A program made the position numbers and the translations under genes. The notes beneath the pieces are model-generated. The model did not search any database. It worked only from the letters and a program-made list of their open reading frames with translations, and had not been told where the DNA came from. A stretch of 64,000 nucleotides of DNA from Arcobacteraceae bacterium. GTDB lineage: Bacteria; Campylobacterota; Campylobacteria; Campylobacterales; Arcobacteraceae. Position 1 is the stretch's first letter. Each line of letters begins with the position of its first letter. The stretch lies in the NCBI GenBank assembly GCA_048268245.1, contig JBLWVX010000011.1, forward strand, positions 1 through 64,000, read 5' to 3'. Positions 41,130 to 58,332 of the stretch are shown here, one piece after another.

Positions 41130-41190
41130 ATGGGGATGATATGGCTTCGATTAGAGCATCGAGGCTTGATTGCATGTCGGCCTGAGCATG
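41130..41190 (+). repeat. attL: 61-bp direct repeat comprising the 5' end of tmRNA
   Basis: ATGGGGATGATATGGC...CCTGAGCATG is identical to 54498-54558. Confidence 0.95.
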
Positions 41191-41330: not shown

Positions 41331-42563
41331 ATGAGTGTTAATAAACTACTAACTTCACTTAATATCAACAAATATGGAGTATATTATCTTAGGTTTAGAG
41401 TCTCAAATAAACTAAGTAGATTTTTCAAAAAAGAGTACATTTCAAAGTCTTTATTTACAAAAGAAAAGAAGACAGCAAAAATTAAAGCTATGGTTTACAG
41501 AAGTAAATATATAGAGCTACTTCAAATATCAGAATGGATTGACGATAAGACACTTCAATTAAAAGTTAATGAATACATGAAGGATACTCTTAAAGTTGAA
41601 TGTCCAAGTATTGAACAAGAACAACCTAAGCAAGATGAGTTTAGATTAAAAGATGCTATTGCCTTATATAACAAATGGTACAAAAAACAAGGTGTAGCAG
41701 AGAAACAATATAAGATGATACAAAAAAGATTAAATGTGGCTATTTCATATTTTGGTGAAAATAGAATACTGAAAGAACTTAATACAGATGATATTGAAGA
41801 ATACATTGATTTTTTAACTAAGTATCCTAACCCTAACAAAAAACCTTACAAAACAATGAGTTTCAAACAAATACTTAGGCTCAAAAATGTACCTCAACAA
41901 GACTATATCTCACCTAGTACAGTTATTAAATATATCAAAGCATTTCAACAGCTTGAAAACTTCTTAGTTGATGATGGTAAACTTGACAGGAAAATAAGTA
42001 AAAGAGCTAAACTTCCAAATGTTAAAGATGCATCTAGAAGTCCGTTTACCGAAGATGACTTAAAAACTCTCTATAATAAGTTTGATAAAATGGGTGATTT
42101 AGGTCTACTCTACTACACATTTGCTTATTCAGGTATGAGAACTTCAGAGTTTTGGAAATCTAAAATAGGATATGAAGATGGCATATACTTTTTTGATTTA
42201 TCCTATGAAGGGGTAGAGCTTAAAACTAATTCAAGTAAACGTAAAATACCTATTCATTCTAAACTAATTGAAAAAGGTATCTTATATAAATTAGAGGAAC
42301 TTCAAGAATCATATAAACAGGGATATGTAAGTGAAATCTTTAACAGAAAACTAATCAACCTTATCAGAGACTCTAAGAATAAAGTAATGTATAGTTTTAG
42401 GCATACTGTAGCAACTCATTTAAAGAGAGCTGATGTTGATATTGATAAAATCTCTGAGATACTTGGACATCGCTATGAAAATACTTCTATGACTAAAACA
42501 GTTTATACTAATGGTTATTCTTTACTTCAACTAAAAGAAGCAATAGATAGATTAGATTTTTAG
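41331..42563 (+). CDS. Tyrosine recombinase / integrase of island 1
   Basis: N-terminal YYLRFRV...ISKSL.T arm-type domain; GMRTSE, LKT, YSFRH, ILGH and VY catalytic motifs; adjacent to attL. Confidence 0.92.
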   Translation: MSVNKLLTSLNINKYGVYYLRFRVSNKLSRFFKKEYISKSLFTKEKKTAKIKAMVYRSKYIELLQISEWIDDKTLQLKVNEYMKDTLKVECPSIEQEQPKQDEFRLKDAIALYNKWYKKQGVAEKQYKMIQKRLNVAISYFGENRILKELNTDDIEEYIDFLTKYPNPNKKPYKTMSFKQILRLKNVPQQDYISPSTVIKYIKAFQQLENFLVDDGKLDRKISKRAKLPNVKDASRSPFTEDDLKTLYNKFDKMGDLGLLYYTFAYSGMRTSEFWKSKIGYEDGIYFFDLSYEGVELKTNSSKRKIPIHSKLIEKGILYKLEELQESYKQGYVSEIFNRKLINLIRDSKNKVMYSFRHTVATHLKRADVDIDKISEILGHRYENTSMTKTVYTNGYSLLQLKEAIDRLDF

Positions 42564-42569
42564 TCTTGT

Positions 42570-45440
42570 CTATCTATCGTAAAACATTCCTACAAAACTA
42601 GTCACTTTATCAATGATATTAGTTATAGCTTTCTTTCTACCTAATGCTTTAGGTTTTTCCACTAAAGTATTAATAACTACATCAGGTTCAGGTTTCTTAC
42701 CATCATAAATATATGTATCTACGACTGACTTAAAGGCTTCTTTATGTAAGTTCTCTTCTTTAACCATTACTTCAAATACTTTGGTTTTTTCTTCTTCCAT
42801 AAAATTATCAAACTCTTCTTCAATCTCTTCAATATTAATGCTATCAAGTGTAGTATCTATGAACTTCTCAATTAATTCTTTCTTACTTCTTAGCTTAGGG
42901 TTTGAGTTTATGATATTAATAATATTAGCTCTTTGTTTTTCTTTTTGTTCTGCTGTCGAGTTTGCATACTTAGCTAGAAGCTTTAGGATATAAGCTACAT
43001 TAATCTCATCTTTATGAATCAACTCTAATTCAAAGTCAACGTCATCAAGTATAGAAACTTTCTCGCTTCCTTGTCCTGTTTTGTTAGCTTTGATTTTATC
43101 ATAAAGGTCAAGGTACTTAGATTTATAGTCTTCAAACATTTGTTCACTCATGGACAAGTCAGACCATTTGAAGTCACTAAACCCATCAAGAATATTTTTT
43201 AGTCTTATTAGCTCTCTAAATGCTTTAATAAACTCTAATTGTTCTTCTTCATCGATGATTGAATCAACACTGCTAACACTTGGAGCAATCTTAATTAATT
43301 CTTGAAATGCTTCATTGAACTTTTGTACATAATACTCATAAGGCTTCATTAAAATAATGTCTTTAGCTTCTTTGTTAGAGAACAATGCAATAGCATCATC
43401 TGTGTTTTTCTTCAAGTTTCTAAAACACACAATGTTACCTTGAGACTTTTGCTCATTTAGTATTCTATTAGTTCTACTATAGGCTTGTATCAGACCATGA
43501 TACTTCAAGTTCTTATCAACATAAAGGGTATTAAGCCTTGGACTGTCAAAGCCTGTTAAGAACATGTTTACTACCAACAGAATGTCTATCTCTTTTTGCT
43601 TAACCTTCTTAGAGATGTCATTATAGTAGTTATAGAAGCTTTGAGAGTCTTTTGTGCTGAACTTAGTGTTAAACATAGAGTTATAGTCTTCAATGTACTC
43701 ATCAAGCTTCTCACGACTGTGTTTATTAATATGAGACTCATCTATGTGTGCTCCATCAGATTCATCAAGTTCATAGATTCCATTAGCATCTTTGTCATCT
43801 TCATTTGCACTGTATGAAAAGATAGTAGCTACTTTTAGCTTGTGCTCTTTGCTCTTGAAAGCTTCATAATACTTGTGAAGAACATCAACACTACTAACAC
43901 ACATCATAGCTGTGAACTCTCTAGAGTGAGTTTTCCTGTCATGGTTAGCTAAGATATAATCAACAATCTTTCCAACCCTTTCTTTACTTTCTAACAGCTC
44001 TTTAACGTCTATGTTTTCAACTTCAATATCTACTTCAGTAGCACTGCCTTCTTTCTCTTTGTATCTTCCTATGTACTCAACTGAGAACTTCAACACATTA
44101 TCATCACTAATAGCATCTGTTATCACATACTGATGAAGCTTTCCATCTTCTCCACCAAACAGCTCTGCTGTAGTTCTCTTTCCATACTTATTGCCTACTG
44201 CATTCTCAGGAAAGATTGGAGTACCTGTAAAGCCTATTAGCTGAGCTTTTTCAAAGAAGCCTGTGATGTTTTTATGGGTTTCTCCAAACTGTGACCTATG
44301 GCACTCATCAAAGATGAAGACAACGTTTTTATCTCTTAAAGCTTCCATCTCTTTTAGGTAGTGAGGTTTACTAATAGCTGTATTTAGCTTTTGAATGGTA
44401 GTGATGATTAGGTTACTATCTTTTAGTACACCTTTTCTGTCTTTGTGTTTTCCTAAGAACTGATTCACTAGAACTTTAGTATTGTCTGTTCCATCAACTG
44501 AACCATCAGAGAAGCTGTTGAACTCTTTTGAGGTTTGAAAGTCTAAGTCTTTTCTATCAACAACAAAGACAACCTTATCAACTTCAGGAAGCTTCACTAG
44601 GATTTGAGATGCTTTGAATGATGTTAGAGTTTTACCTGAACCTGTTGTATGCCAAATGTAACCATTCTTTTGAGTGTTCTTAATCCTATCAACAATAGCT
44701 TCAACTGCATAGTATTGATAAGGTCTTAGAACCATTAGTATCTTTGGAACTTCAGCTAAAACAATATACTTACAAATCATCTTAGACACATGACATCGCT
44801 CTAGAAAGATTGAAGTGAACTCCTCAAGGTTTTTGATGTTAATGTTGTTCTTATCAGCCCAATAGAAAGTCTGCTTGAATGACTGCTTACGATTGTTCGC
44901 ATAGTACTTAGTGTTAACACCATTAGAGATTACAAAAAGCTGTACATAGTGAAATAAAGCACTGTTAAACCCATATGAGTGTCTTTGGTATCTGTTGATT
45001 TGATTGAAGGCTTCCTTTAGTTCTAGACCTCTCCTTTTTAGCTCAATCTGAACTAGAGGTAATCCATTGATAAGGATTGTTACATCGTATCTGTTCTTGT
45101 ACTTACCTTCTATAGTAACTTGTTGTGTAACTTGAAATAGATTCTGACACCAATGCTCTGAGTCTAAAAACTCAATATACTTTGTGTCTCCATTGTCTAA
45201 AGTTAAAGCATATTTGTCTCGAAGAAGTTTAGCCTTCTCAAAGACATTACCTTTGTTTATATGGTTTAGGATTCTTTCAAACTCATCAGAGCTTAGACTT
45301 GTCTTGTTGTGTTTTTCAAGTTGTGACTTTAGGTTTGACAGAAGTGAAGCTTCGTCTTTGATGACCACTTTCTCATAGCCTTGAGAGCTTAACTGTTTTA
45401 CTAAGTTGTCTTCTAGTACTGCTTCACTTTGTTTACTCAT
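42570..45440 (-). CDS. hsdR: Type I restriction endonuclease subunit R
   Basis: RYDV...NGLPLVQIELK nuclease motif; HTTGSGKT, DECHR, FTGTP, LTGFD and QAYSRTNR helicase motifs. Confidence 0.95.
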   Translation of the reverse strand: MSKQSEAVLEDNLVKQLSSQGYEKVVIKDEASLLSNLKSQLEKHNKTSLSSDEFERILNHINKGNVFEKAKLLRDKYALTLDNGDTKYIEFLDSEHWCQNLFQVTQQVTIEGKYKNRYDVTILINGLPLVQIELKRRGLELKEAFNQINRYQRHSYGFNSALFHYVQLFVISNGVNTKYYANNRKQSFKQTFYWADKNNINIKNLEEFTSIFLERCHVSKMICKYIVLAEVPKILMVLRPYQYYAVEAIVDRIKNTQKNGYIWHTTGSGKTLTSFKASQILVKLPEVDKVVFVVDRKDLDFQTSKEFNSFSDGSVDGTDNTKVLVNQFLGKHKDRKGVLKDSNLIITTIQKLNTAISKPHYLKEMEALRDKNVVFIFDECHRSQFGETHKNITGFFEKAQLIGFTGTPIFPENAVGNKYGKRTTAELFGGEDGKLHQYVITDAISDDNVLKFSVEYIGRYKEKEGSATEVDIEVENIDVKELLESKERVGKIVDYILANHDRKTHSREFTAMMCVSSVDVLHKYYEAFKSKEHKLKVATIFSYSANEDDKDANGIYELDESDGAHIDESHINKHSREKLDEYIEDYNSMFNTKFSTKDSQSFYNYYNDISKKVKQKEIDILLVVNMFLTGFDSPRLNTLYVDKNLKYHGLIQAYSRTNRILNEQKSQGNIVCFRNLKKNTDDAIALFSNKEAKDIILMKPYEYYVQKFNEAFQELIKIAPSVSSVDSIIDEEEQLEFIKAFRELIRLKNILDGFSDFKWSDLSMSEQMFEDYKSKYLDLYDKIKANKTGQGSEKVSILDDVDFELELIHKDEINVAYILKLLAKYANSTAEQKEKQRANIINIINSNPKLRSKKELIEKFIDTTLDSINIEEIEEEFDNFMEEEKTKVFEVMVKEENLHKEAFKSVVDTYIYDGKKPEPDVVINTLVEKPKALGRKKAITNIIDKVTSFVGMFYDR

Positions 45441-45456
45441 GGGTTTCCTTTAGTCT

Positions 45457-46677
45457 TTACACAAACATCTGTTGTAGGAGTGCTTTCTTGAACTGTTTTG
45501 TTGCTTCTAGTTGTCTTGTAAACTTTTGTATTTTATCATCTAAGCTTTGGAAGAAAACAACTATCTTCGATTGTTCTTCTAACTCAGGAATAGATATTGA
45601 ATCACTTATTGCATAAGAGTTATTGATTTTCATATCATTTTTTGCTCCTTTGTGAACAAGTGGTCTAAAGTAACTATTCACATTGTCATCAAGCTGAAAA
45701 TAGTAGTCAATAAATAAAGGATTCAAGTTTTCTTTTGGTCTATAAACTGCATAAAGAGTTGAAACAACTCCAGCTTTTTTCTTGTTAACCTTTACAATAC
45801 CATAAGGATTAGCCTTCAATGGACTTTTAGTATAAACAATATCATTAACCTTTACTACATGATAGTTATTTATTGACGCCCCTGCAAAAGAACGACCTTG
45901 AAACTCTATTTGATTAACAATCCCAAACTCTCCCGAAACTGATAATACATCATTTTTTGTATAGCTATCATCAATGTTTCTTTCTTTGTGTTCATACATT
46001 AGTTCATTTAGCTTTCTTTTTTTCCAAGAAGGAAACTCTCTTCCATCATCAGCTTTAAACCTAATCTCTTGTGAGAAGATTTTCTGCATCACACCTTTTT
46101 TGTATTGCTTTAGTAGTTCTTCTTTTTTTGTTAGCTGTTCTATTTTAGTATCAACTGAAGTAAGGAATGAAGCTATCTTTTCTTGTTCTTGTTTTACAGG
46201 AATTGATATAGGAATACTTTTGATTATAGAACCACTTAAGTTTTTTTGTCCACCATCATTACTAAGATTTCGGATGTTATCATACTGTCCTGCTAAATAT
46301 TGATATAAGAATATATAACTTGTATCTTTTGGTTTGATAGATGCACACGCTTGATTTGTAGTTGCTTGTATTTTTAAAATACCTACTTTGCCTCTTGTCT
46401 TACCTTGTCCATACATAGCCATCAGTATAGTGTTTTTTTCAAATAGTTTGGCAGATGAGTTATTTAAGGCTTCTTCTGTTATGTATTCTTCTGCACCTTG
46501 GATATCTTTAAAATCAATCAAAGAAGTAGTAACCCAAGGTATAGTTCCATTCCAATAAGAGGATTTGCTTCTTGATGGGGTACCACCTGAACTAACAACA
46601 GCTATATTACCAATATTAGTATTTTCCCACTCTCTACTAAACTCTTTGAATCTTAACTTAGGTACATTACTCATCAT
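45457..46677 (-). CDS. hsdS: Type I RM specificity subunit S
   Basis: VPKLRF N-terminus; two TRDs with repeated EQ.KI..F..S.D.KI...KK...Q..F conserved regions. Confidence 0.93.
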   Translation of the reverse strand: MMSNVPKLRFKEFSREWENTNIGNIAVVSSGGTPSRSKSSYWNGTIPWVTTSLIDFKDIQGAEEYITEEALNNSSAKLFEKNTILMAMYGQGKTRGKVGILKIQATTNQACASIKPKDTSYIFLYQYLAGQYDNIRNLSNDGGQKNLSGSIIKSIPISIPVKQEQEKIASFLTSVDTKIEQLTKKEELLKQYKKGVMQKIFSQEIRFKADDGREFPSWKKRKLNELMYEHKERNIDDSYTKNDVLSVSGEFGIVNQIEFQGRSFAGASINNYHVVKVNDIVYTKSPLKANPYGIVKVNKKKAGVVSTLYAVYRPKENLNPLFIDYYFQLDDNVNSYFRPLVHKGAKNDMKINNSYAISDSISIPELEEQSKIVVFFQSLDDKIQKFTRQLEATKQFKKALLQQMFV

Positions 46678-46683
46678 CTACCT

Positions 46684-48246
46684 CTAAAATGGCTTAGCAA
46701 TACCAAGCTCATCACAGAACTCAGCTATTGTTTCATCTGTAGTAACCATATCTGACTCTAAAGCTTTTAGCTTAGAACTAACTTCATCTAAGTCAACAGG
46801 TTCTTCTTCTTCAAAAGTGTCTACATACCTAGGGATATTTAAGTTATAGTCATTCTCTTTGATTTCATCCATTGAAGCTAGGTGTGAATACTTCTCTATC
46901 TCTTCTCTATTAGTGTAAGTCTGTACAATCTTAGAGACATTCTCATCAGTCATGTAGTTTTGGTTCTTAGCTTTCTCAAACTCATTTGAAGCATCCATAA
47001 ACAAGACATTGTCACTATCTTCTCTGCACTTCTTAAACACTAAGATACAAGTAGGGATTGAAGTTCCATAGAAGATGTTAGCAGGAAGACCAATAACAGC
47101 GTCTAAGTAGTTTCTATCTTCAATCAGGTACTTTCTTATGTGTCCTTCTGCTGAACCTCTGAACAGTACTCCATGGGGTAAAACTATAGCCATAGTTCCA
47201 TTATCATCTAAGTGATGTATCATATGCTGTACAAAAGCAAAGTCTGCTTTAGAAGAAGGTGCTAGTTTTCCATACTGAGAGAATCTGTCATCACTTAAGA
47301 ACAAATCATTAGCTGACCATTTAGCTGAGAATGGAGGATTAGCAACGATTGCTTCAAACCTGTCATCCAAGTGCTGAGGGTGTTCTAAAGTATCTTCATG
47401 CTTGATGTCAAACTTTCTGTAGTGCACATCATGCATAATCATGTTCATTCTTGCTAAGTTGTAAGTTGTAGCATTTAACTCTTGACCATAGAAGTTAGAG
47501 ACATCAGATACCTCTTTAGCAACTCTAAGAAGTAGTGAACCTGAACCACATGTTGGGTCATACACAGACTTTAGTTTTGTCTTACCAGTAGTTACTATCT
47601 TAGCTAAGACTTTAGATACTTGCTGAGGTGTATAAAACTCTCCTGCTTTCTTTCCTGCACCTGCGGCGAACTGACCAATAAGATACTCATAAGCATCACC
47701 AAGGATGTCACTTTCGGTATCTTTTAGTTCAAAGTCTATGTTATCTAAGTGAGTAAGAACTCTTACTATCAACTCATTTCTTTTTTCAACAGTTTTCCCA
47801 AGTTTCACAGAAGTTAGGTCAAGGTCATCAAACAGGTTTACGAAGTCATCTTCACTGTCATGCCCCATTGTTGTTTGCTCTATGTTTCTTAGGATTGACG
47901 TTAGGTCTTCAAGGATGAAGTTGTTCTCTGTTCCACTTCCTCTTTTTGCTATTTCAGAAAATAGTTCATTAGGTCTTAAAAAGTATCCTAGTTTTTCTAA
48001 AGCTTCATCTTTAACTACTTCAATATACTCTTTTTCTTGTTCATGTCCTAAAACTTCTAGATATGAAATACCATCCTCTTTTAGTATTTGTGTATTTGCA
48101 TAATCTTCAATCTTCTCAGATAAGTACTTGTAAAAAATAAATCCTAGTATGTAATCTCTAAACTCATCAGCATCCATCTTCCCTCTAAGGGTATCTGCAA
48201 TGTTCCATAGTTGTCTTTCAAGTTGTTTTTTATGCTCGTCGCTCAA
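46684..48246 (-). CDS. hsdM: Type I RM N6-adenine methyltransferase subunit M
   Basis: LW.IA..LRG, GEFYTP, DPTCGSG and NPPF motifs; TTG start. Confidence 0.95.
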   Translation of the reverse strand: MSDEHKKQLERQLWNIADTLRGKMDADEFRDYILGFIFYKYLSEKIEDYANTQILKEDGISYLEVLGHEQEKEYIEVVKDEALEKLGYFLRPNELFSEIAKRGSGTENNFILEDLTSILRNIEQTTMGHDSEDDFVNLFDDLDLTSVKLGKTVEKRNELIVRVLTHLDNIDFELKDTESDILGDAYEYLIGQFAAGAGKKAGEFYTPQQVSKVLAKIVTTGKTKLKSVYDPTCGSGSLLLRVAKEVSDVSNFYGQELNATTYNLARMNMIMHDVHYRKFDIKHEDTLEHPQHLDDRFEAIVANPPFSAKWSANDLFLSDDRFSQYGKLAPSSKADFAFVQHMIHHLDDNGTMAIVLPHGVLFRGSAEGHIRKYLIEDRNYLDAVIGLPANIFYGTSIPTCILVFKKCREDSDNVLFMDASNEFEKAKNQNYMTDENVSKIVQTYTNREEIEKYSHLASMDEIKENDYNLNIPRYVDTFEEEEPVDLDEVSSKLKALESDMVTTDETIAEFCDELGIAKPF

Positions 48247-48320: not shown

Positions 48321-49478
48321 CTAACTTACATATTCATATAACGTTATATCTTGGTTACTAATAATTGAGCCATCTTTTATATCATCAACTCCTAAATGAA
48401 TATAGTTTAAACTAGTATGATAACTTTTATGTCCCATAAATGTCATAATTTTATACCCATTCCATTTACTTACACTCGCTAGTCTTGATGCAACTGTATG
48501 TCTCAGTCCATAAGGGACATAGTCTTTATGTATTTCTTTATCAGTCCAGTTTAGATGTTTTTTCATTATTGTCCATCTGTTGCCAACCATATCTTGTGTT
48601 AGTCTAGTGAACTTTAGAGTTTTGTATTTACTGTCACTTACAATGTCTTTAAGTTCAATATCGCAAGGAAGTTTCTTTTTATGTATGATAGTTAGAGAGT
48701 ATTTAATATGCTCTTTAATAGCTTTTAGTACAATGCCTTCAAGTGGCAAAGTCCTGATGAGATTGTTTTTTGTTGAATTATATGAACCTCTAGATATTGT
48801 AACATGGTTATTATAGAAATCAAAGTCACCTAACTGAAGATTAAAATATTCTGCTGGTCTTAATCCAAGTGATATATTAATTATAAAATACTTTATCATT
48901 TCCCAATCAGTACTATTATTTGTTTCCTTGTATCTTTCAACTAATGTTTGGTACATTTGATATTCTTCATATCTTGAAAAGCATATTTTTCTTTTCTTAT
49001 ATACAGGCATTCTCAAACCTTCAAATGGAAGTTTATTGTCTAAAATTAGTTTTTGTTTATTTTCCAAATACTCAATTGATGTTTTTAATGTTGATATATA
49101 GTGATTTATTGTTTTATTTGCGTAATTCTTCTTTATAAGATACCTTTTAAACCTATCAAGGTCATCGACAGTTAATGTTGAGATAAGTCTACTTTCTCCG
49201 AAAAACATAGATATTTTTTCCCATCTCATTAGTGGATTTTTTTTATCCCTAAAATATATCCATTTAGTTTCATAAATATATGATGTAGCATCTTTGAAGC
49301 TTAATCCTAAGTCTATTTCTTTGGGATTGAGGTACTCTATAGGGTTAATAATATGTTTCTTCCATTCATCTTCTTTTTCTAAAGCTTTTTTCTTTATTTT
49401 TGTAGTCCAAGTTTTTTGATAACGTATTTTATTAATTATAAAATCAGACTTCCAAAATCCATTTTGTTTCTTATACAT
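48321..49478 (-). CDS. Second tyrosine recombinase (phage-integrase-like)
   Basis: TIN.Y.S.L, GLRPAE, TKN, YGLRHTVASRL, MGH and NYIH motifs; AAGGAG SD. Confidence 0.88.
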   Translation of the reverse strand: MYKKQNGFWKSDFIINKIRYQKTWTTKIKKKALEKEDEWKKHIINPIEYLNPKEIDLGLSFKDATSYIYETKWIYFRDKKNPLMRWEKISMFFGESRLISTLTVDDLDRFKRYLIKKNYANKTINHYISTLKTSIEYLENKQKLILDNKLPFEGLRMPVYKKRKICFSRYEEYQMYQTLVERYKETNNSTDWEMIKYFIINISLGLRPAEYFNLQLGDFDFYNNHVTISRGSYNSTKNNLIRTLPLEGIVLKAIKEHIKYSLTIIHKKKLPCDIELKDIVSDSKYKTLKFTRLTQDMVGNRWTIMKKHLNWTDKEIHKDYVPYGLRHTVASRLASVSKWNGYKIMTFMGHKSYHTSLNYIHLGVDDIKDGSIISNQDITLYEYVS

Positions 49479-49705
49479 TTTTCTCCTTTATATGAATAAT
49501 ATTGGAAAAAATAAAATAAAGTCAAAGTTTTGAAAGACTATGATTACCCAAAGCTTACGAATCTACTCGTTAAGTAAAAAAAATACCAAAAAAATCTGAA
49601 ACCCCATAATGTAAACCACAGTAAAAGTTATCCCCCCATACCCCCTCTTAAGTTCACAGATAAAGAACTTTAAGGGGAAACTTCAAGCCCAACTATTAAA
49701 ACCTT

Positions 49706-49794
49706 TCTGTGAGAAGCCTACAAGCTCTTTTCCTTTTTTAGTCTAATGTTTATATCAAGAAATAAGCTCTAGGGTTTCTACATAACCTTACAGA
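49706..49794. repeat. Imperfect long palindromic element, left of the resolvase
   Basis: TCTGTGAGAAGCCTACAAGCTCTT ... AAGCTCTAGGGTTTCTACATAACCTTACAGA; related to 50553-50643. Confidence 0.5.
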
Positions 49795-49927
49795 CTTCTA
49801 TTAATCTATCAATCTATAACCTTCATTAAAACTAAAGTATTTTATAAAGTCTTATACTTGACAAAGTATTTATAATTTGATAAAGTTTCAAGCATAATAT
49901 ACCTTAAGACTTGAAAGGAGATTTTAA

Positions 49928-50560
49928 ATGACAATAGGATACCTAAGAGTTTCAACTGATAGACAAACTGTAGAGAACCAAAAGAGTGTTATTAGAGCTT
50001 ACTGTAATGATAAGTTAAAGATAACTGTTGATGATTGGATTGAAGTTGTAATGAGTTCAAGAAAAGACTTAAGAGACAGAAAGATAGATGAACTTTTATC
50101 AATACTTTCAAAAGATGATAAAGTGATTGTGAGTGAACTATCAAGGTTAGGTAGGTCAACTCAAGAGGTTCTACAGACTATAGAGAAGCTTATGAAGTTA
50201 GAGGTAGAACTACATATCATTAAACAAAACCTTACAGTTAATCCAAACAATAAGAATGACTTTGTATCAAAAGCTATGATTACTTTATTTGGTCTATTTG
50301 CAGAGTTAGAGCGAGACTTAATCAGTCAAAGAACTAAAGAGGCTTTAACAGCTAGAAAAGAACAAGGAGTTACTTTAGGGAAGCCTAAAGGTACACTTCA
50401 AAAGTCAAAATATGATGAGCATAAAGATAGGATAGTTGAACTTAAGAGTTTAGGTTTATCACTTAACAAGATTGTATCTAATCATTTAGAGCCAGTTATG
50501 GGAAAAGGTAACTGTTCTGTTCAAAGCTTATCTACTTACTTAAAGAAAAGAGGTCTGTAA
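49928..50560 (+). CDS. Small serine recombinase (resolvase/invertase)
   Basis: GYLRVST..Q, ELSRLGRS, FAELER.LI.QRT..AL and G.P motifs; C-terminal HTH. Confidence 0.93.
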   Translation: MTIGYLRVSTDRQTVENQKSVIRAYCNDKLKITVDDWIEVVMSSRKDLRDRKIDELLSILSKDDKVIVSELSRLGRSTQEVLQTIEKLMKLEVELHIIKQNLTVNPNNKNDFVSKAMITLFGLFAELERDLISQRTKEALTARKEQGVTLGKPKGTLQKSKYDEHKDRIVELKSLGLSLNKIVSNHLEPVMGKGNCSVQSLSTYLKKRGL

Positions 50561-50643
50561 GTCTATCTTACAGCTCTTCTTTTAATCCACTAATACTTTT
50601 TATTAACTTACAACTAAAAGGCTTTGTAGGGTTTCCTACAGAC
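50553..50643. repeat. Imperfect long palindromic element, right of the resolvase
   Basis: GTCTGTAAG..CTTACAGCTCTT...TAAAAGGCTTTGTAGGGTTTCCTACAGAC; arms are self- and mutually complementary. Confidence 0.5.
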
Positions 50644-50710
50644 TGTCTATACCTCAAAAATTACTTACTAAAACTTATTTATTACAATACCCATAAAATC
50701 GAGCCTTTTT

Positions 50711-50898
50711 GAAGATACCCCTCTCTAGGAAGAGTGTTTAACTTATCAACTTCTAAAAAGACCTTTATTAAGGCTTTCTCTTAAGAGGGTGCAGTATAGG
50801 AGAGAACTTAATTTAGTAATCTCAATAATTCCCCTTAATTAGGTAGTTATCTGAAGGGGGACCCGTATAGGAAGTAAAGAGTGCTTCCTCTAGGAGGA
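50711..50898 (+). promoter_or_regulatory. Array of four motifs with T7-type RNAP promoter geometry (degenerate 71-bp repeat)
   Basis: DAAGR-N8-T(A/C)TA-GGAR at 50711, 50782, 50853 and 50876; function inferred. Confidence 0.45.
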
Positions 50899-50931
50899 AA
50901 ACTAAAATCAAAATCATAAAAGGAGGTTCAG

Positions 50932-51411
50932 ATGAACAACAATCAAACACAACTGAAAGATGTTGTAATGTTTACTGATGGCTCTTGTTTAGATAATGGT
51001 AGAAATGGAACTGGAGGATACTGTGCATTACTACAGACACCTAACAAGAAACATCAAAAGATAATTAAAGGTAGTGAGTTAGATACTACGAATAATCGTA
51101 TGGAGATAACAGCTATCATTGAAGGACTAAAGGCAATTAAAAAGCCTTCAAGAGTTACAGTCTATAGTGACTCTAATATAACTGTAAGAGCTATTAATGA
51201 ATGGCTTGAGGGTTGGATAAGAAAGAACTTTAGAAAGGTTGCTAATGTAGACCTTTGGAAAGAGTATTTAGAGGTATCAGCTAAACACCAAATTAAGGCT
51301 ATATGGGTTAAAGCTCATAGTGGTATTTATGAGAATGAGCTTGTAGATGATATAGCTAGAAGTGAAGCTATGAAGTTACATAGTAAGAGAGGTGTTCATT
51401 ATGAGTATTAA
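50932..51411 (+). CDS. rnhA: Ribonuclease HI (island-borne)
   Basis: FTDGSC, TTNNRME, YSDS, NVDLW and WVKAHSG...NE.VD motifs with catalytic residues intact; AAGGAGG SD. Confidence 0.93.
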   Translation: MNNNQTQLKDVVMFTDGSCLDNGRNGTGGYCALLQTPNKKHQKIIKGSELDTTNNRMEITAIIEGLKAIKKPSRVTVYSDSNITVRAINEWLEGWIRKNFRKVANVDLWKEYLEVSAKHQIKAIWVKAHSGIYENELVDDIARSEAMKLHSKRGVHYEY

Positions 51412-52189
51412 GATTGATAACTTTAAACCATTTGATGAGTATGCAAAAGAAACTTACTTAAGTATTCTACATAACAAACAGCTCAAAACTCCTCAAGCAC
51501 ATATTACAGATGAAGATAGAAATATTCTTGAAAGAAAATGTCATGCTTATACTAAAAACAATTATGAAGTCTTTAGTGAGTACCTTGAAGATATAATTAT
51601 TAGCTATGAAAATGAAGCAGAACTTGAAATACATAATACTACGCTCTTAATAAATAAGCATACAGGAGAGATTTTATCTGAAGATTTTCATATCATAGAC
51701 AAGGATTATATAAAACTAAAAAGAAAAGAGTTAAATAGTCTTAAATATTACAAAAAGAAGTTTACTAAATCAAAAACTAATAGTAAGGTTAAAGTTGAAA
51801 ACTATAAGTCTAACCACAGATATACTAAGCTCTTCTCTAAGGTTAAACCATTATTTAAAAACCATAAATATCTTGGTATCTTTTATGACATTAGTAGAGA
51901 ATTAAGCCCTTATGAAAACATAGTATCTCAACAAAACAATGATGGTAGATTTACTCCATTAACAACTAAACAGATACAAGAGAGGTTTAATATTTCTCCT
52001 GATGATATGAAGAGATTTAAAGCTGAAGCAAAAAGACTTAAAGTTATTAGTGATGTAAAACTAAAAGGAAGAACTTTAGGTATAAGGGTAAATCCAGTTT
52101 ATGCTCTAAATGGGCAAGATATAAGTGAAAGCTTATATAAAGCATTTAAAGACTCTAAAGAGTTTATAGAGAACTTCAAAGAAAACTAA
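51401..52189 (+). CDS. Putative replication-type / HTH DNA-binding protein (RepL-like)
   Basis: IN..TGEI motif, C-terminal HTH-like LT.KQI.E.F.IS and RVNP.Y...G; overlaps the rnhA stop. Confidence 0.45.
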   Translation: MSIKIDNFKPFDEYAKETYLSILHNKQLKTPQAHITDEDRNILERKCHAYTKNNYEVFSEYLEDIIISYENEAELEIHNTTLLINKHTGEILSEDFHIIDKDYIKLKRKELNSLKYYKKKFTKSKTNSKVKVENYKSNHRYTKLFSKVKPLFKNHKYLGIFYDISRELSPYENIVSQQNNDGRFTPLTTKQIQERFNISPDDMKRFKAEAKRLKVISDVKLKGRTLGIRVNPVYALNGQDISESLYKAFKDSKEFIENFKEN

Positions 52190-52532
52190 AGGTGTATATA
52201 CGCACTATTATAAAATCACTAGAACACCTATAATATGGGCTTTATTAAAGATTTAAGTTAACAAATGCTTCTTATATATAGTGAAAAATCTATAGATAAC
52301 TTATATATTTAATTAGTATAGAAATGAGTTTAGGCTAGAGCTATATTAGCATTAAAAGTAAAGCTATTACTAGACCTTAATTTCATTTCTAAACAATCAT
52401 AATCTTAGAGTAATACTTAAGTAATAACTATAAATTGACTTTAAATAAATACATTACTCCGTGTCTTTGATACTACCTATTTCTCTTTATCTAGTCTAAA
52501 AATATCACTTTCAACAAATCTCATTACAAAGG

Positions 52533-52740
52533 CTATCGGGTTTTTAGTCCCTCTTCACTGCTTCCTCTAGGAGAAGAAACTACAAAATCTCCATTGGAAA
52601 TATGTTCTATTGCCCTTATTATAGGCTTAAGTAGAAAGACTATCGGGTTTTTAGTCCCTATTACACCCCCTCTAGGAGAAGACTTTAATTAAAACTACAA
52701 AATCTCCATCGGAAATATATCCTGTTGCCCTTATTGTAGG
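52533..52740 (+). repeat. Two about 95-100-bp direct repeats (52533-52625 and 52640-52740)
   Basis: Shared CTATCGGGTTTTTAGTCCCT, CCTCTAGGAGAAGA, AAACTACAAAATCTCCAT.GGAAATAT and TTGCCCTTATT.TAGG blocks. Confidence 0.9.
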
Positions 52741-52783
52741 GTTAATTTAAAAAAATAAAACAAGTACATAAAAGGAGAAGTAA

Positions 52784-52857: not shown

Positions 52858-53503
52858 ATGAAAACTGAAGTTATGATGATAAGACAACTTGGAGATATTC
52901 AAGTAAGACAATCTAATCAGACTGAGATGTTTAATGCTACAGATTTGGTGAATGGGTTTAATGAGTATAGAAAGGCTATGGGATTACCTGAGAAGAGACT
53001 ACAACACTATTGGGAAAATGACTCAACTAAAGAGTTCCTTGAAGCCCTAGAAATGGAGCTTAGTTTAAATAACCGGAAATCCGGTGAATTAAAAATCACT
53101 AGAAAAGGAAAGTATGGAGGGACTTATGTTGCTCCTGAAGTGTTCGTAGATATTGCTATGTGGTTAAACCCTAGCTTCAAAGCTAAAGTAATGATTTGGG
53201 TGTCAGACAATCTGTTAGGTGTTAGGAATACTTCAGGTATCCAACAGCAAGTTATGAACAGAGTTAGCTGAGAAGTTCAGTAATAGGACTACAAAATGGT
53301 TGATTATGAGGTTTAGTAAAAGAATTAATGAACATATCCTAGAGGAAGGTCAAGACTGGCAGAGTGCTACTACAGAACAACTAGAGCAAAGACTAGCACT
53401 ACAAACTAAGATTATAAATGCGTGTGAGCTTTTACCTGATGGTATTAGTGAAGATGAGTTCTGTGAAATAGTGTTTAAAGTTAGACCTAAAGTTGTAGCT
53501 TAA
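52858..53503 (+). pseudogene. KilA-N domain protein split by a frameshift near 53264
   Basis: FNATDL...W.N..TKEF..AL...KYGGTY...IAMWLNP.F; the +1 frame continues LAEKFSNRTTKWLIMRFSK...W.SAT.EQL into ORF 53300-53503. Confidence 0.75.
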
Positions 53504-53620: not shown

Positions 53621-54073
53621 ATGATTAAAAATGAAATATTAAAAGTAGATATTAGTGAGGAAGTTGTAGTAGAGGTTCAGCCACACAAAGAGCATGAGTG
53701 GCTGTTGTCAAGTAAAGATGTGGCTGAAAGTTATGGTTTGAGTAGAAGTGGTCTTACTAAAACTAAAAGTAGATATGCAGATGAACTTGAAGAAGGTAAA
53801 CACTGGGTTGTGACAGATTGTCACACCCTTGGAGGAAAACAAAAAACAGTTTATTGGACTAAAGAAGGCGTAGTAATGTTAGGGTTCTTCATTAAGACAC
53901 CTACAGCTAAAAAGTTTAGAAGATGGGCTTCAAACTTTATCGTTGAGAAAAGTAAAGAACCAAAAGCCCCTGTAGTACCTCAGACATACATAGAGGCACT
54001 TCAAGCTCACTTAGAGTCAGTTAGAGAGTCAGAGGAAGGTAATAGAGTTATTACTTTACAAGCGCCTAAATGA
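53621..54073 (+). CDS. Phage antirepressor-like protein, probably C-terminally truncated
   Basis: KDVA..YG, TLGG.Q....WT.EG...LGF...AK.FR.W; PQTY.EAL and QAPK linker followed by an abrupt stop. Confidence 0.65.
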   Translation: MIKNEILKVDISEEVVVEVQPHKEHEWLLSSKDVAESYGLSRSGLTKTKSRYADELEEGKHWVVTDCHTLGGKQKTVYWTKEGVVMLGFFIKTPTAKKFRRWASNFIVEKSKEPKAPVVPQTYIEALQAHLESVRESEEGNRVITLQAPK

Positions 54074-54497: not shown

Positions 54498-54558
54498 ATG
54501 GGGATGATATGGCTTCGATTAGAGCATCGAGGCTTGATTGCATGTCGGCCTGAGCATG
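54498..54558 (+). repeat. attR: 61-bp direct repeat restoring the ssrA 5' end
   Basis: Identical to 41130-41190. Confidence 0.95.
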
Positions 54559-54897
54559 CCGTTACGCGGCTCATTTTTTTTAGACGCAAACAATACAAAT
54601 TACGCTCCAGCTTACGCAAAAGCTGCGTAAGTTTAACAACTTATAACGAGCTCCCTTCGGGTTGAGCTTTTGGAGGTTCGCTCTGTAGATTCTATCTATG
54701 CAGGATTTAGCGGATTCACCCAGATAGATTACCAAAGAGAGATTGATCGAATTTCTTTGGGACATCCTTAGATCTTAGCTTTTTAGTTGCCTTGCAGGTT
54801 GAGCTGCTAGAAAGTGAAATTTTTCAACCTCACTAAGCATGTAGACGTCAAGAGTAGATGTTTTAAGACTCCGGTTCGATCCCGGACATCTCCACCA
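54500..54897 (+). ncRNA. ssrA: tmRNA; tag (A)ANNTNYAPAYAKAA encoded at 54586-54630
   Basis: 5' GGGGATG pairs with 3' CATCTCC-ACCA (G3:U alanine identity); T-arm CCGG-TTCGATC-CCGG; tag ORF ends in Ala-Ala. Confidence 0.97.
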
Positions 54898-55082: not shown

Positions 55083-56300
55083 ATGGCTAAAGTTATAGTA
55101 CCTCTGTCAAGTACACAAATTAAAAGTGCAAAACCAAAAGAAAAAGATTATAAACTTTTTGATGGTGGTGGTTTATTTTTATTAATAGCTAAAACTGGTG
55201 GTAAAAGATGGAGAATGAAATACAGATTTAATGGAAAAGAAAAACTTATTGCATTAGGTGTTTATCCTCAAATTTCATTAAAAGTTGCTAGGGAATTAAG
55301 AGAGCAATATAAATCTATGATAGCACAAGGAATTGATCCAAACCAAGAAAAAAAACAAAAAAAAGAAGAGACTAAAAGAACTGAGGAAAAAAAAGAAAAT
55401 ACTTTCTTTAAAATTTCACAAGAATGGCATAAAAATTATGCAACTGAGGTATCAGAGAATTATCATTATAAACTTGAAAGAGCATTAGAAAACTATATAT
55501 ATCCTTTCATAAAAAACAAAGCTATAGAAGATATAACAAGACTAGATATTATAGAAATACTTCAAGATTTAAAGAATAAAGGTATTATAGACACAGCAAA
55601 TAGAGTTTATATGCTTTTAAATAAAATATATAAATACGCGGTAACATTGGAGTATGTTCCTCATAACATAATAGCAGATATTGAGCAAAAAAATATATTA
55701 GGTAAAATAGAGAAAAAACATTATCCAACTTTTACAAAAGATGAAGACATAAAAGGATTACTTCTATCAATTGATGAATATGAAGGTGATTATTCAACAA
55801 AAATGGCTTTAAAAATACTTCCTTATATATTTGTAAGAAGTTACAATATAAGACATGCTAAGTGGTCTGAAATAAATTTTGATACAAAAGAATGGATTAT
55901 ACCAGCGTCGAAAATGAAAACTAAAAAAGAATTTATATTACCTTTACCTAAAAATGTAATAGAATTACTTTATGAAGTAAATAAGATTACAGGACAAGAA
56001 GAGTACATTTTTCCAAGTTATAGACAAAGAAACAGACCAATGAGTGACAATACTTTATTATCAGCTATAAGAAGGATGGGATATACAAAAGAAGAATTTG
56101 TACCTCACAGTTTTAGAGCAATGTTTTCAACAATAGCATATGAAAATATGGAAGAACATGGATATAGTAGTGAAGTTATAGAATCACTACTTGCTCATGT
56201 AGAAAAAAATAAAGTGAAAGAAGCTTACAATAGAGCATCTTATAAAAAATCAATGAGAGGATTAATCGAGTGGTATGCTAATTATTTAAAAAATAAGTAG
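55083..56300 (+). CDS. P4-like tyrosine integrase
   Basis: AKPKEK.YKL.DGGGL.L...GGK.WR..YRF.GKEK..ALGVYP arm domain; FVR, KMK, HSFR, LAH and AYNR motifs. Confidence 0.95.
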   Translation: MAKVIVPLSSTQIKSAKPKEKDYKLFDGGGLFLLIAKTGGKRWRMKYRFNGKEKLIALGVYPQISLKVARELREQYKSMIAQGIDPNQEKKQKKEETKRTEEKKENTFFKISQEWHKNYATEVSENYHYKLERALENYIYPFIKNKAIEDITRLDIIEILQDLKNKGIIDTANRVYMLLNKIYKYAVTLEYVPHNIIADIEQKNILGKIEKKHYPTFTKDEDIKGLLLSIDEYEGDYSTKMALKILPYIFVRSYNIRHAKWSEINFDTKEWIIPASKMKTKKEFILPLPKNVIELLYEVNKITGQEEYIFPSYRQRNRPMSDNTLLSAIRRMGYTKEEFVPHSFRAMFSTIAYENMEEHGYSSEVIESLLAHVEKNKVKEAYNRASYKKSMRGLIEWYANYLKNK

Positions 56301-56417
56301 CCACAAATTTATCTTTTTAAATTTTTTCATTCCAAATAATCTATAAATTACTAATTATTTATATTTTATAAATATATACAATACATTATAAAAACGATAT
56401 TTATCAATATACTATAT

Positions 56418-56485
56418 TCACTATAGGGAATTTATTTAATAATCATATTCATGTAATATTTTATTATTAAATCACTATGGGGAAT
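56418..56485 (+). promoter_or_regulatory. Two near-identical 14-bp boxes (putative XRE operators)
   Basis: TCACTATAGGGAAT (56418-56431) and TCACTATGGGGAAT (56472-56485); the first lies in the quasi-palindrome TTCACTATAGGGAA. Confidence 0.5.
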
Positions 56486-56489
56486 AATT

Positions 56490-56735
56490 ATAGAATATTT
56501 AGAAATATCACAAAAAGAGATAAGTAACTTTCATACTAAAATTGCTGAAAATGTAAAAAAAATAAGACAAGAAAAAAAAGTCACTCAACTTGAATTAGCT
56601 CTTAGAATTGGTCATAAGTCTATGAGTACTATCGCAAAAATTGAATCTAATCTTGAAAATAAACACTATAACTTAGAACAATTATATAAAATTTCTAAAG
56701 CCCTTGATGTAGATATAAAAGAATTCTTTTTATAA
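56490..56735 (+). CDS. XRE/Cro-CI HTH regulator with non-canonical ATA/ATT start (absent from the ORF track)
   Basis: Hand translation IEYLEISQKEISNFHTKIAENVKKIRQEKKVTQLELALRIGHKSMSTIAKIESNLENKHYNLEQLYKISKALDVDIKEFFL*; GGGGA SD upstream; in-frame TAA at 56454. Confidence 0.8.
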   Translation: MEYLEISQKEISNFHTKIAENVKKIRQEKKVTQLELALRIGHKSMSTIAKIESNLENKHYNLEQLYKISKALDVDIKEFFL

Positions 56736-56745
56736 AGAGAGTAAA

Positions 56746-58332
56746 ATGTCAAAACTTGAGTCTTTAATTGAAAAACTGTCTAAATCTTCACCTGAAGCAG
56801 TAAATACTCTAAATAGTAGTACAGATGAAATTATAGAATATCTTCATATAGAAACAGATATTGAAGAAAGATATTTAGAGTTACTAAAGCAAAATAAACA
56901 AAATAAATGTTTAATTTTTCTTTGTGGTAGTAGTGGTGATGGTAAATCAGCCATTATAAACAGACATATAAATACTTTTAAAGATTCTTATAATTTTCAT
57001 GTTGATGCAACTCACAGTTTTAAACCAAATCAAACTGCAATTGAAGCTTTAACTGAAAGTTTTAAGAAATATCAAAATGATAATAAATCTTTAGTTATTG
57101 GAATTAATATTGGTATCATGTTAAATTTTACAGACCATCTAATATCAGAACTTGAAGAAATACAAAAAGCAATCAAAAAATTTTTAGATCAAAAAAAAGA
57201 TAGTAAAAACGTCTATTTTATTAACTTTGAAAACTATTCTAAATTTAATTTTCAAGATAATAAAATAGAATCTCCTTTCATAAAAAAATTATTGAATAAA
57301 ATTACAATTGAGTCTGATGATAATCCTTTCTTTAAAGCTTTAATTGAAGATAACAAATCTAATATAAGTTCAATAGTACATCAAAACTATAGATTATTAT
57401 CAAACAATTATCTACAAAATGAAATTATTAATTTACTTATTCTTTCTAATCTAAAATATGATCAGTTTTTAACAATAAGAAGTCTTTTAGATTTTATTTA
57501 TATCTTATTAAAAGGACCCAATTTATTGGTTAATCAGATCTTTGAAGATACTTCAAATGATATTATTAAAAATATAAAAAAAGAAGACCCCATATTAAAA
57601 AGATCTTTTTTATTAGATAAGTTTATACTTGAAAGATTTAGTTCAAAAAAAGATGATTCTTTAAATAGATTTATTGATGAATTTAATGATCTATTTAAAA
57701 AAGAAATTTTAGACTCAAAATGTCCATTTACTCTGATAAGGACATTTTTTATATTTAAAGAAATGGAAATTTCAAATAATTATCATAAAAACTTTTTAAA
57801 AGACTTCGACAATGCTGAATTAATAAATTTTGTTGAATTGATATCAATTCATAGAGACTATAGAGAAGAGCATAGAAAAAGAGTAAAAGAATTCTATGAA
57901 AAAGCTATTAAAGCTATTTATATTTTTATCAATAAAAACTATCCTGATTTAGTTAAAAAAAGTTTTGTAGTTTTATCTTCAGATAAAGAATTAACAATCT
58001 CTGCATATGCAAAGATATTACCTAATTGGAATATTATTAAATCTTCAAAAACTGATTCATTTAGATATTTTCCTTTTTATCTAAAAATTAATGGTGAAGA
58101 GTTAGAAAAAGAAATCCATATTACACTGAATATGTACCTTATGATTAACCTAATTAATAATGGATATAGACCAAATAAACATGATAGAAACACAATTATT
58201 ATCTTTGAAGAATTAATTGAATCCGTATTAGAATCTGCCGTACATTCTGATAAATTAGCAATCATAAAAAAAGATATGATAAAAACATTTTCTAAAGATG
58301 AAGATGAAATAGAGGTAGATGATGAAATCTAG
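56746..58332 (+). CDS. dptF: DNA phosphorothioation-dependent restriction protein DptF (DndF)
   Basis: LSKSS.EAV, IFLCGSSGDGKS, H.DATHSF.P, GINIG and GYRPNKHD motifs. Confidence 0.88.
   Translation: MSKLESLIEKLSKSSPEAVNTLNSSTDEIIEYLHIETDIEERYLELLKQNKQNKCLIFLCGSSGDGKSAIINRHINTFKDSYNFHVDATHSFKPNQTAIEALTESFKKYQNDNKSLVIGINIGIMLNFTDHLISELEEIQKAIKKFLDQKKDSKNVYFINFENYSKFNFQDNKIESPFIKKLLNKITIESDDNPFFKALIEDNKSNISSIVHQNYRLLSNNYLQNEIINLLILSNLKYDQFLTIRSLLDFIYILLKGPNLLVNQIFEDTSNDIIKNIKKEDPILKRSFLLDKFILERFSSKKDDSLNRFIDEFNDLFKKEILDSKCPFTLIRTFFIFKEMEISNNYHKNFLKDFDNAELINFVELISIHRDYREEHRKRVKEFYEKAIKAIYIFINKNYPDLVKKSFVVLSSDKELTISAYAKILPNWNIIKSSKTDSFRYFPFYLKINGEELEKEIHITLNMYLMINLINNGYRPNKHDRNTIIIFEELIESVLESAVHSDKLAIIKKDMIKTFSKDEDEIEVDDEI

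Follow-up and report, generated by a model that had tools for sequence, protein, structure and literature searches.

The question raised by this locus is why a mobile element should carry its own gene for RNase HI, translationally coupled to a second gene. The window, by which is meant the whole stretch of 64,000 nucleotides that was analysed (positions 1 to 64,000 of contig JBLWVX010000011.1 of a marine Arcobacteraceae bacterium, forward strand), had been the subject of an original prediction, in which this rnhA was placed beside a Rep-like gene inside a mobile element and was proposed either to process primers for replication of the element or to destroy the RNA:DNA primers of a T7-like phage. 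The mobile setting has been borne out: a 13.4-kb island is bounded by 61-bp perfect direct repeats of the tmRNA 5' end (41130-41190 and 54498-54558), and the empty site (joint 41129->54498) is present in three of eight public runs (X2, X5, and X4), the circle joint not being found among the joints listed for the eight runs. The features of the island are as follows, with the basis of each assignment in parentheses.

41130..41190, no strand: attL, 61-bp perfect copy of the tmRNA 5' end (repeat search; empty-site joint)
41331..42563, + strand: tyrosine integrase (DUF6538 + Phage_integrase), of a type common to related islands (Pfam)
42570..48246, - strand: type I restriction-modification cargo (hsdR by PADLOC; hsdS and hsdM from sequence reading)
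48321..49478, - strand: second tyrosine recombinase, kin to an integrase found in T7-like phage contigs (Pfam)
49858..49886, + strand: sigma70-like promoter (10/12, extended -10) for the resolvase (consensus match)
49928..50560, + strand: serine resolvase/invertase (Pfam)
50555..50583, + strand: bidirectional intrinsic-terminator-like hairpin, 3' of the resolvase (sequence scan)
50709..50735, + strand: T7-promoter-like site 1, +1 at 50728 (motif matrix)
50780..50806, + strand: T7-promoter-like site 2, +1 at 50799 (motif matrix)
50851..50877, + strand: T7-promoter-like site 3, +1 at 50870 (motif matrix)
50874..50900, + strand: T7-promoter-like site 4, +1 at 50893 (motif matrix)
50920..50926, + strand: Shine-Dalgarno sequence AAGGAGG of rnhA (sequence reading)
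50932..51411, + strand: accessory RNase HI, 159 aa, catalytic residues intact, protrusion loop short (Pfam; 1ril alignment; dN/dS 0.08-0.20)
51401..52189, + strand: partner gene, 262 aa, C-terminal winged helix, RepL-like lead, in an exchangeable slot (model; Atlas neighbours; homologs)
52190..52292, + strand: partner-specific tail of ~100 bp with a short inverted repeat at its start, a candidate binding site or origin (locus comparison)
52293..52490, + strand: AT-rich (77%) non-coding block with a 30-nt inverted repeat (blastn)
52525..52757, + strand: duplicated unit of ~107-115 bp with two more promoter-like sites, +1 at 52570 and 52675 (repeat and motif scan)
52858..53271, + strand: KilA-N protein (Pfam)
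53621..54073, + strand: Bro-N/antirepressor-like protein (Pfam)
54498..54558, no strand: attR, overlapping the 5' end of the intact tmRNA gene, 54500-54897 (repeat search; Rfam)

The gene content is therefore that of an integrase, a type I restriction-modification system, a second recombinase, a resolvase, the rnhA-partner pair, and KilA-N and Bro-N genes. Virion genes are absent from the island, three T7-like RNAP queries found no RNA polymerase in the island or in its own genome, and the tmRNA was the sole match in the Rfam scan. Sister islands are integrated at tRNA-Val, tRNA-Pro, and tRNA-Met. The second recombinase is kin to an integrase encoded just 5' of the RNAP gene in T7-like phage contigs (L115 and L116; identities of 45% over 86 aa and 33% over 190 aa), which suggests, from sequence, gene exchange with temperate T7-like phages. 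Three further observations concern the island and its surroundings. The KilA-N ORF ends at 53271 and is followed by a 67-aa ORF at 53300, possibly as parts of one split gene (region 52858-53503). In run X7, the same island has a replaced hsdS-like gene segment (window 46188-46638), suggesting specificity swapping of the type I system. Beyond the tmRNA 3' end a second island occupies window positions 55083-64000 and extends to C11:71861; its genes include a P4-type integrase, DndF-like and other Dnd-like genes, and a resolvase with 49% identity to that of the first island.

The accessory gene is an intact RNase HI by family and catalytic residues, and is predicted to cleave RNA:DNA hybrids. The 159-aa product matches PF00075 with an E value of 8e-37 and 126.9 bits (gathering cut-off 25.8), its PRK00203 equivalog score being 156.4 bits for an NCBIfam cut-off of 160, and the predicted D-E-D-D and His residues, Asp16, Glu58, Asp80, His129, and Asp139, all align with the FTDG, NRME, YTDS, KGH, and NERVD motifs of 1ril. 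Asp16, Glu58, Asp80, and His129 are invariant in all 22 clade members aligned, and purifying selection is evident in each of the 21 pairs formed by seven copies (dN/dS 0.08-0.20). The loop of the basic protrusion has a 5-residue gap relative to 1ril, with Trp91 and Trp95 of helix C retained. The loop is thus short, as originally described. The core RnhA of the host has a longer loop; the short loop therefore distinguishes the accessory enzyme from the host copy, as does its pI (9.2 versus 6.2). The remaining predicted features of the gene start and end are also present: the ATG is preceded at a spacing of 5 nt by the strong Shine-Dalgarno sequence, the last site of the promoter-like array (+1 at 50893) lies 39 nt upstream, and the ATG of the partner, at 51401, overlaps the rnhA stop by 11 nt, with an SD-like GAGGTG inside rnhA.

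The original prediction proposed a search for a separate core rnhA and a phylogeny, and both distinguish this gene from the housekeeping enzyme. A core rnhA, 45% identical to the island copy, is located on contig C20 beside rnc in the order dnaG-TPR-rnhA-rnc-aroC. A careful tree was built from 45 of the 145 rows of a quick tree; in it, 13 accessory rows form a clade (support 99/93) separate from that of the Arcobacter core copies (100/98), and this clade nests within a Campylobacterota group (94/89). In the quick tree, from which rows with an internal stop were left out, the accessory clade comprises 49 rows (SH-aLRT 95), of which 42 are proteins without context. An AU test of a topology uniting the accessory and Arcobacter core rows in one clade marginally rejected it (p-AU 0.043), for groups that were named after the first tree. 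A vertically inherited housekeeping rnhA is ruled out by the presence of the core copy next to rnc and by the separate clade, and a recent duplicate of the core gene by the separate clade and the 45% identity. A third RNase H-like gene, which is divergent (155 aa; 26% identity), is present beside radA in housekeeping surroundings (G000 C39:14902-15369).

Close relatives of the island rnhA are sparsely distributed, being found in 6 of 184 genomes of the family, its own included; a further rnhA copy is present in all five of the other carrier genomes and also in G688. The accessory clade was absent among the matches listed for a 400-genome sample of the phylum, in which each listed genome had one match with a core-like score. 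Among other families, it was found in none of 61 genomes of f11 and in 1 of 353 of f7, where the copy of a Sulfuricurvum-level relative (L276) is ~56% identical to that of the island. Nothing supports a viral origin. Among 409 IMG/VR RNase H hits, the best 80 reach no more than 46% identity, and the 29 IMG/VR sequences placed in the tree all fall outside the Campylobacterota group. A search for RNase H came up empty in three sets of phage sequence: 49 T7-like phage loci, the entire G561 record, and the surroundings of the polymerase-type partner (described below) at 23 viral loci. Because the clade lies inside the Campylobacterota group and these best viral hits do not exceed 46% identity, the accessory gene most likely represents an old capture from a Campylobacterota host.

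The linkage of rnhA to a downstream gene is recurrent, but it is a linkage to a position rather than to one gene. Eight accessory copies have a visible context (those of the window, L005, L009, L020, L021, L100, L101, and L276), a count that leaves out possible further rnhA-partner pairs (P0070/P0209, P0081/P0207, P0087/P0208, P0079/P0008, and P0065/P0003). The eight copies span two families and several integration sites; in every one the rnhA stop overlaps a long partner ORF, by 11 nt in seven and by 4 nt in one, and in seven at least two motif copies lie upstream of rnhA, none being found in L005 with the anchor used. The partners are of three mutually unrelated types, RepL-like in three copies, YonV-like in three (frameshifted in G089), and polymerase-like in two. 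The G089 locus is 86.8% identical to the window over 49579-51415, and its partner changes from the rnhA stop onward; in run X1, one and the same rnhA is found with each of the two partner types downstream. A fixed pair of rnhA and one following gene is thus ruled out, and the "rnhA-rep" linkage originally proposed holds only as an association with a slot that accepts three unrelated genes. Since the three are unrelated, direct binding between RNase HI and its partner is unlikely. The RepL-like and YonV-like types each have their own tail, which starts with an inverted repeat and is followed by a common AT-rich block that gave a blastn match in 6 of 10 related loci, all of these two types. In the available text of PMC2579912, non-homologous displacement in place is treated as a sign of equivalent function, and we infer from the locus comparisons that the slot may be an exchangeable module of initiator plus origin.

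It should be noted that rnhA is optional in these islands, as five related islands that bear the array are without it (L007, L010, L284, L011, and L012); L291, a 5'-truncated locus of the polymerase type with no array, was left out of the island counts. In L007, L010, and L284, rnhA is replaced by a leader of 22-23 codons that has the same first seven codons and keeps an overlap of 8-11 nt, whereas in L011 and L012 the partner starts directly, with no leader. A similar N terminus is present in the distant copies P0093 and P0193, and the leader may conceivably be a deletion remnant of rnhA.

The three partner types differ in how far their sequences and models point to replication. For the 262-aa partner in the window, the proposed structure prediction gave a winged helix at the C terminus, but the model has low confidence (pLDDT 51) and no Foldseek match at E<=0.001. 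The designation "Rep-like" gains from this winged helix and from the Atlas neighbours of the homologue P0002, which are mostly unnamed viral clusters but include RepL-bearing clusters at 0.93 (RepL annotation in 25% and 69% of the members of neighbour clusters), but not from profile matches: the partner passes no Rep HMM, PF05732 (RepL) matches neither it nor any of 10 close homologs, and its cut-off is passed by 1 of 48 distant homologs. No relatives of this partner were found in the genome contigs, viral contigs, and plasmids searched. RepL is therefore to be regarded as a lead and not as a family membership. Two distant homologs of the winged helix, P0025 and P0036, are fused to HNH or GIY-YIG nuclease domains.

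The second type, of 416 aa, matches phrog_2467 and yonV of SPbeta (29.9%) and has the motifs GVCGSGKS, VLDE, and QWLFRSRLR; it is a P-loop protein by its Walker A/B-like motifs. The YonV-like family has matches in 32 plasmid records, and in two Acinetobacter phage-plasmids of 38-39 kb the YonV-like genes (L280, 26593-27939; L281, 28303-29601) lie near parA and a non-coding gap. As these two records have no annotated Rep in PLSDB gene tables that are incomplete, the YonV-like gene appears to be the only evident initiator candidate in them; the available text of PMC9927589 does not identify the YonV-like gene as a Rep, and the phage neighbours of YonV-like genes are not replication genes. The third type, of 424 aa (phrog_4756), is modeled with a pLDDT of 90.6 as a minimal family-A polymerase fold, for which a fold search gave apPol (Z 13.9, rmsd 3.6, 225 residues aligned) and T7 RNAP (Z 12.7). 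Residues Arg239, Asp267, Asp287, Arg296/Lys300, and Asp392 are invariant in 25 of 25 sequences. The TV-Pol features given in the available text of PMC2579912 are a hairpin Arg, two palm Asp residues, a fingers Asp, and an RxxxK motif; as judged from sequence and model, the polymerase-type partner of the sister islands has these four and can be described as TV-Pol-like. Each of the three partner families has members in lytic or temperate phages, too, where they are hypothetical genes and lie apart from any evident replication module.

The region upstream of rnhA indicates when the pair is likely to be expressed. The terminator-like hairpin behind the resolvase is conserved in six related islands and would stop host transcription before the array, and a consensus scan of the + strand between this hairpin and rnhA found no sigma70 match. 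No RNA run was listed as covering the stretch, a result that speaks neither for nor against expression. The array consists of four promoter-like sites in 170 bp, the cores of which differ among sites. When the matrix is derived from 44 distinct sites, drawn from 9 of 10 homologous regions, the four are the top 4 in the 2.68-Mb genome, a ranking that is partly circular because the matrix was trained on homologous loci; with a matrix from the three most distant loci only (22 sites) they rank 23, 418, 444, and 705 of 5.36 million positions. Of 49 T7-like phage loci, 13 contain a repeated motif that the matrix also picks out. In one such contig, L106, this motif occurs on one strand only, before the RNAP gene, after it, and before virion genes, and it is absent from the host genome. 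Agreement with this phage-contig motif extends to 13 of 15 positions for sites of sister islands and to 9-11 of 15 for those of the window. The array sites are described here as T7-promoter-like, that is, predicted T7-type promoters with a core in common with sites of RNAP-bearing phage contigs. An array variant without sites 2 and 3 (window 50731-50877) is present in five public runs (X1, X2, X3, X4, and X7), so that the number of promoters varies among close strains.

A helper RNAP (PF00940) was found in 0 of 184 family genomes, in a search in which the control was silent too; an exact scan of viral contigs for the array motif gave 0 matches, and DNA comparison with four phage records gave only matches of 22-32 bp. 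The complete 44.7-kb T7-like phage record G561 has a near-identical motif of ~30 bp near 30051 and 32429 (C1, - strand); the pair, which is similar to array sites of the AAGGGG type, flanks the region between the terminase and early genes, and this phage is a possible relative of the helper type. C-terminal fragments of a T7-like phage DNA polymerase are present 3' of the partner in L011 (5278-5637), L012 (6187-6363), and L291 (471-793), and an ORF of L010 is 42% identical to a gene of G561; these may be traces of recombination with helper-type phages.

The accessory rnhA is a real, recurrent, and selected feature, and its function can be inferred from this setting. The reading that we favour, with a probability of roughly 0.45, is that of a replication operon driven by a phage RNAP, in which RNase HI erases R-loops made by the phage enzyme rather than making primers. 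The accessory enzyme would probably be made only when a T7-like phage supplies its RNAP, the terminator keeping the operon silent under the host RNAP; on infection, the phage RNAP would fire the array, and RNase HI and the initiator would be made together through translational coupling. Fast phage transcription over the excised, supercoiled island would be expected to generate R-loops, and their removal by RNase HI would let replication start from the partner's own tail and not from stray transcripts. RNA primers laid by the polymerase-type partner might be cleared as well. In the available text of Becker et al. 2021 (PMC8373140), RNAP promoters are the sites at which T7 replication starts, the T7 enzyme transcribes several times as fast as the RNAP of Escherichia coli, and a T7-origin plasmid replicates only with rnhA inactivated; the host replisome did the replication work in that system, and priming by R-loops is the authors' speculation. 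Because this plasmid needs the loss of rnhA, RNase HI would be a primer eraser on T7-type transcripts, a role that fits an element with its own initiator candidate and heavy phage-RNAP transcription. This possibility, that phage-RNAP R-loops are cleared from the island as its own initiator works, was absent from the original prediction. Counting against it are the RnhA already present in the host and the five islands without rnhA; as the latter exist, the enzyme would be helpful but dispensable.

The same pairing of enzyme and promoters could be directed at the phage, a burst of RNase HI destroying RNAP-made primers at the promoter origins of a T7-like helper and sparing the island with its own initiator. 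This is an unlikely reading, if the strongest of the rivals, and it can co-exist with the R-loop clearing that we favour, the difference being which DNA is the selected target. It draws on the position of rnhA as first gene with a strong Shine-Dalgarno sequence behind a panel of sites with different cores, on the type I restriction-modification cargo of the same island, and on the patchy presence of the gene (8 islands with, 5 without), which is typical of defence cargo. However, T7 grows on rnhA+ E. coli, none of the four proteins (RNase H and three partners) has an HMM match in PADLOC-DB 2.0, and the tight coupling to initiator-like genes points towards a replication module. The T7-like phage loci examined offered no clue to susceptibility. 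As far as the available text of PMC8373140 goes, replication of T7 from RNAP promoters and the block imposed by RNase HI on T7-RNAP-primed plasmid replication are in keeping with such interference. Sequence cannot separate clearing of R-loops from the island from action at helper origins. The wider formulation, that Campylobacterota satellite islands have turned a host RNase HI into a phage-triggered weapon that tells replication modes apart, erasing the transcript primers of T7-like phages, and themselves start from a plug-in initiator (winged helix, SF2-like, or TV-Pol-like) at their own origin, is likewise unlikely. The effector slot that might be envisaged instead, with toxic or abortive proteins (DNA binders, helicase, and polymerase) triggered by phage and RNase HI as further anti-phage cargo or a modulator, would account for the occurrence of all three partner families in phages as hypothetical genes outside evident replication modules. 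Each partner type is nevertheless accompanied by a downstream tail of its own, two phage-plasmids have no evident initiator candidate other than the YonV-like gene (the PLSDB gene tables being incomplete), and the polymerase-type partner has the features of TV-Pols, which in the available text of PMC2579912 are predicted primase/polymerases of mobile elements; such effectors are accordingly improbable here.

Processing of primers for the island's own replication, as originally proposed, is also disfavoured. In this case, a phage-RNAP transcript would form a hybrid in the tail or AT-rich block, and cleavage by RNase HI would leave a 3'-OH primer, as in the ColE1 precedent; transcripts from the array would indeed read across both the tail of the partner and the 77%-AT block. 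A G-rich stretch is needed for the ColE1 hybrid, however, and 52190-52490 has no G4 or C4 run; moreover, the slot has predicted initiators, five islands lack rnhA, and for replication of the T7-origin plasmid, in the available text of PMC8373140, RNase HI had to be inactivated, not supplied. Primer maturation of this type is therefore an improbable, if familiar, explanation. Least probable is a neutral hitch-hiker, a captured host rnhA whose sole remaining role is that of a translation leader for the gene behind it. The three islands in which a 22-23-codon leader retains the same first seven codons and the overlap speak for this, but rnhA has been kept across two families at ~56% identity, and purifying selection on its catalytic residues goes most of the way to refuting the idea (dN/dS 0.08-0.20; Asp16, Glu58, Asp80, and His129 invariant in 22/22).

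These observations link three items, islands with T7-type promoters, a clade of accessory RNases HI, and an exchangeable initiator slot, of which no joint account was found in the literature searched, subscription papers being mostly outside its coverage. The long-standing proposal of a satellite relationship between such islands and T7-like phages becomes testable in a standard T7 system, with one small enzyme and its catalytic mutant. If the weapon reading were true, it would represent satellite interference by removal of RNA:DNA hybrids; if the slot has the function proposed, it points to the YonV-like family as unrecognised replication initiators. The swapping of three unrelated genes at one coupled slot also hints at functions for two phage families that lack annotation, phrog_2467/YonV-like and phrog_4756.

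Compared with bacterial RNase HI (RnhA; PF00075), as known from the E. coli and Thermus thermophilus structures, the island enzyme has the same fold family, D-E-D-D and His residues, and helix-C tryptophans, but it is a second, mobile copy in a clade of its own, with a loop shorter by 5 residues than those of 1ril and the host core copy and a pI of 9.2, and is predicted to be under the control of a phage RNAP. In replicons of the ColE1 type, RNase HI acts on an RNAP-made RNA:DNA hybrid near the origin, and a candidate origin is present here also; those replicons use host RNase HI and host RNAP and encode no initiator, whereas the island encodes both RNase HI and an initiator candidate. The closest known kind of element is the T7 island of enterobacteria, reportedly described by Chen and Schneider in 2006, which is said to carry an integrase, terminal direct repeats, and tandem T7-like promoters that drive a few phage-related genes, and to have no RNAP and no virion genes. 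The window island likewise has an integrase, terminal direct repeats, and T7-like promoters in tandem in a short stretch (four predicted sites in 170 bp), and RNAP and virion genes are absent from it. It differs in its Campylobacterota host (Arcobacteraceae), in the variation of promoter cores within one array, and in its first gene, which encodes an RNase HI and to which one of three initiator-like genes is coupled. The TV-Pol elements of Iyer, Abhiman, and Aravind (2008; PMC2579912, available text) share with the sister islands a minimal family-A polymerase with the same key residues and, with the islands in general, the company of resolvase, integrase, and Bro-N/KilA genes. In that text TV-Pols are never in conserved linkage to nuclease domains, whereas here the polymerase gene overlaps that of RNase HI in two islands from two families; the window island itself has a RepL-like partner instead. 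Finally, the T7-ori plasmids of PMC8373140 (available text) bring together a T7-type RNAP, its promoters, and RNase HI on one replicon, as is proposed here, but these plasmids need the loss of RNase HI, whereas the island keeps an extra RNase HI under selection.
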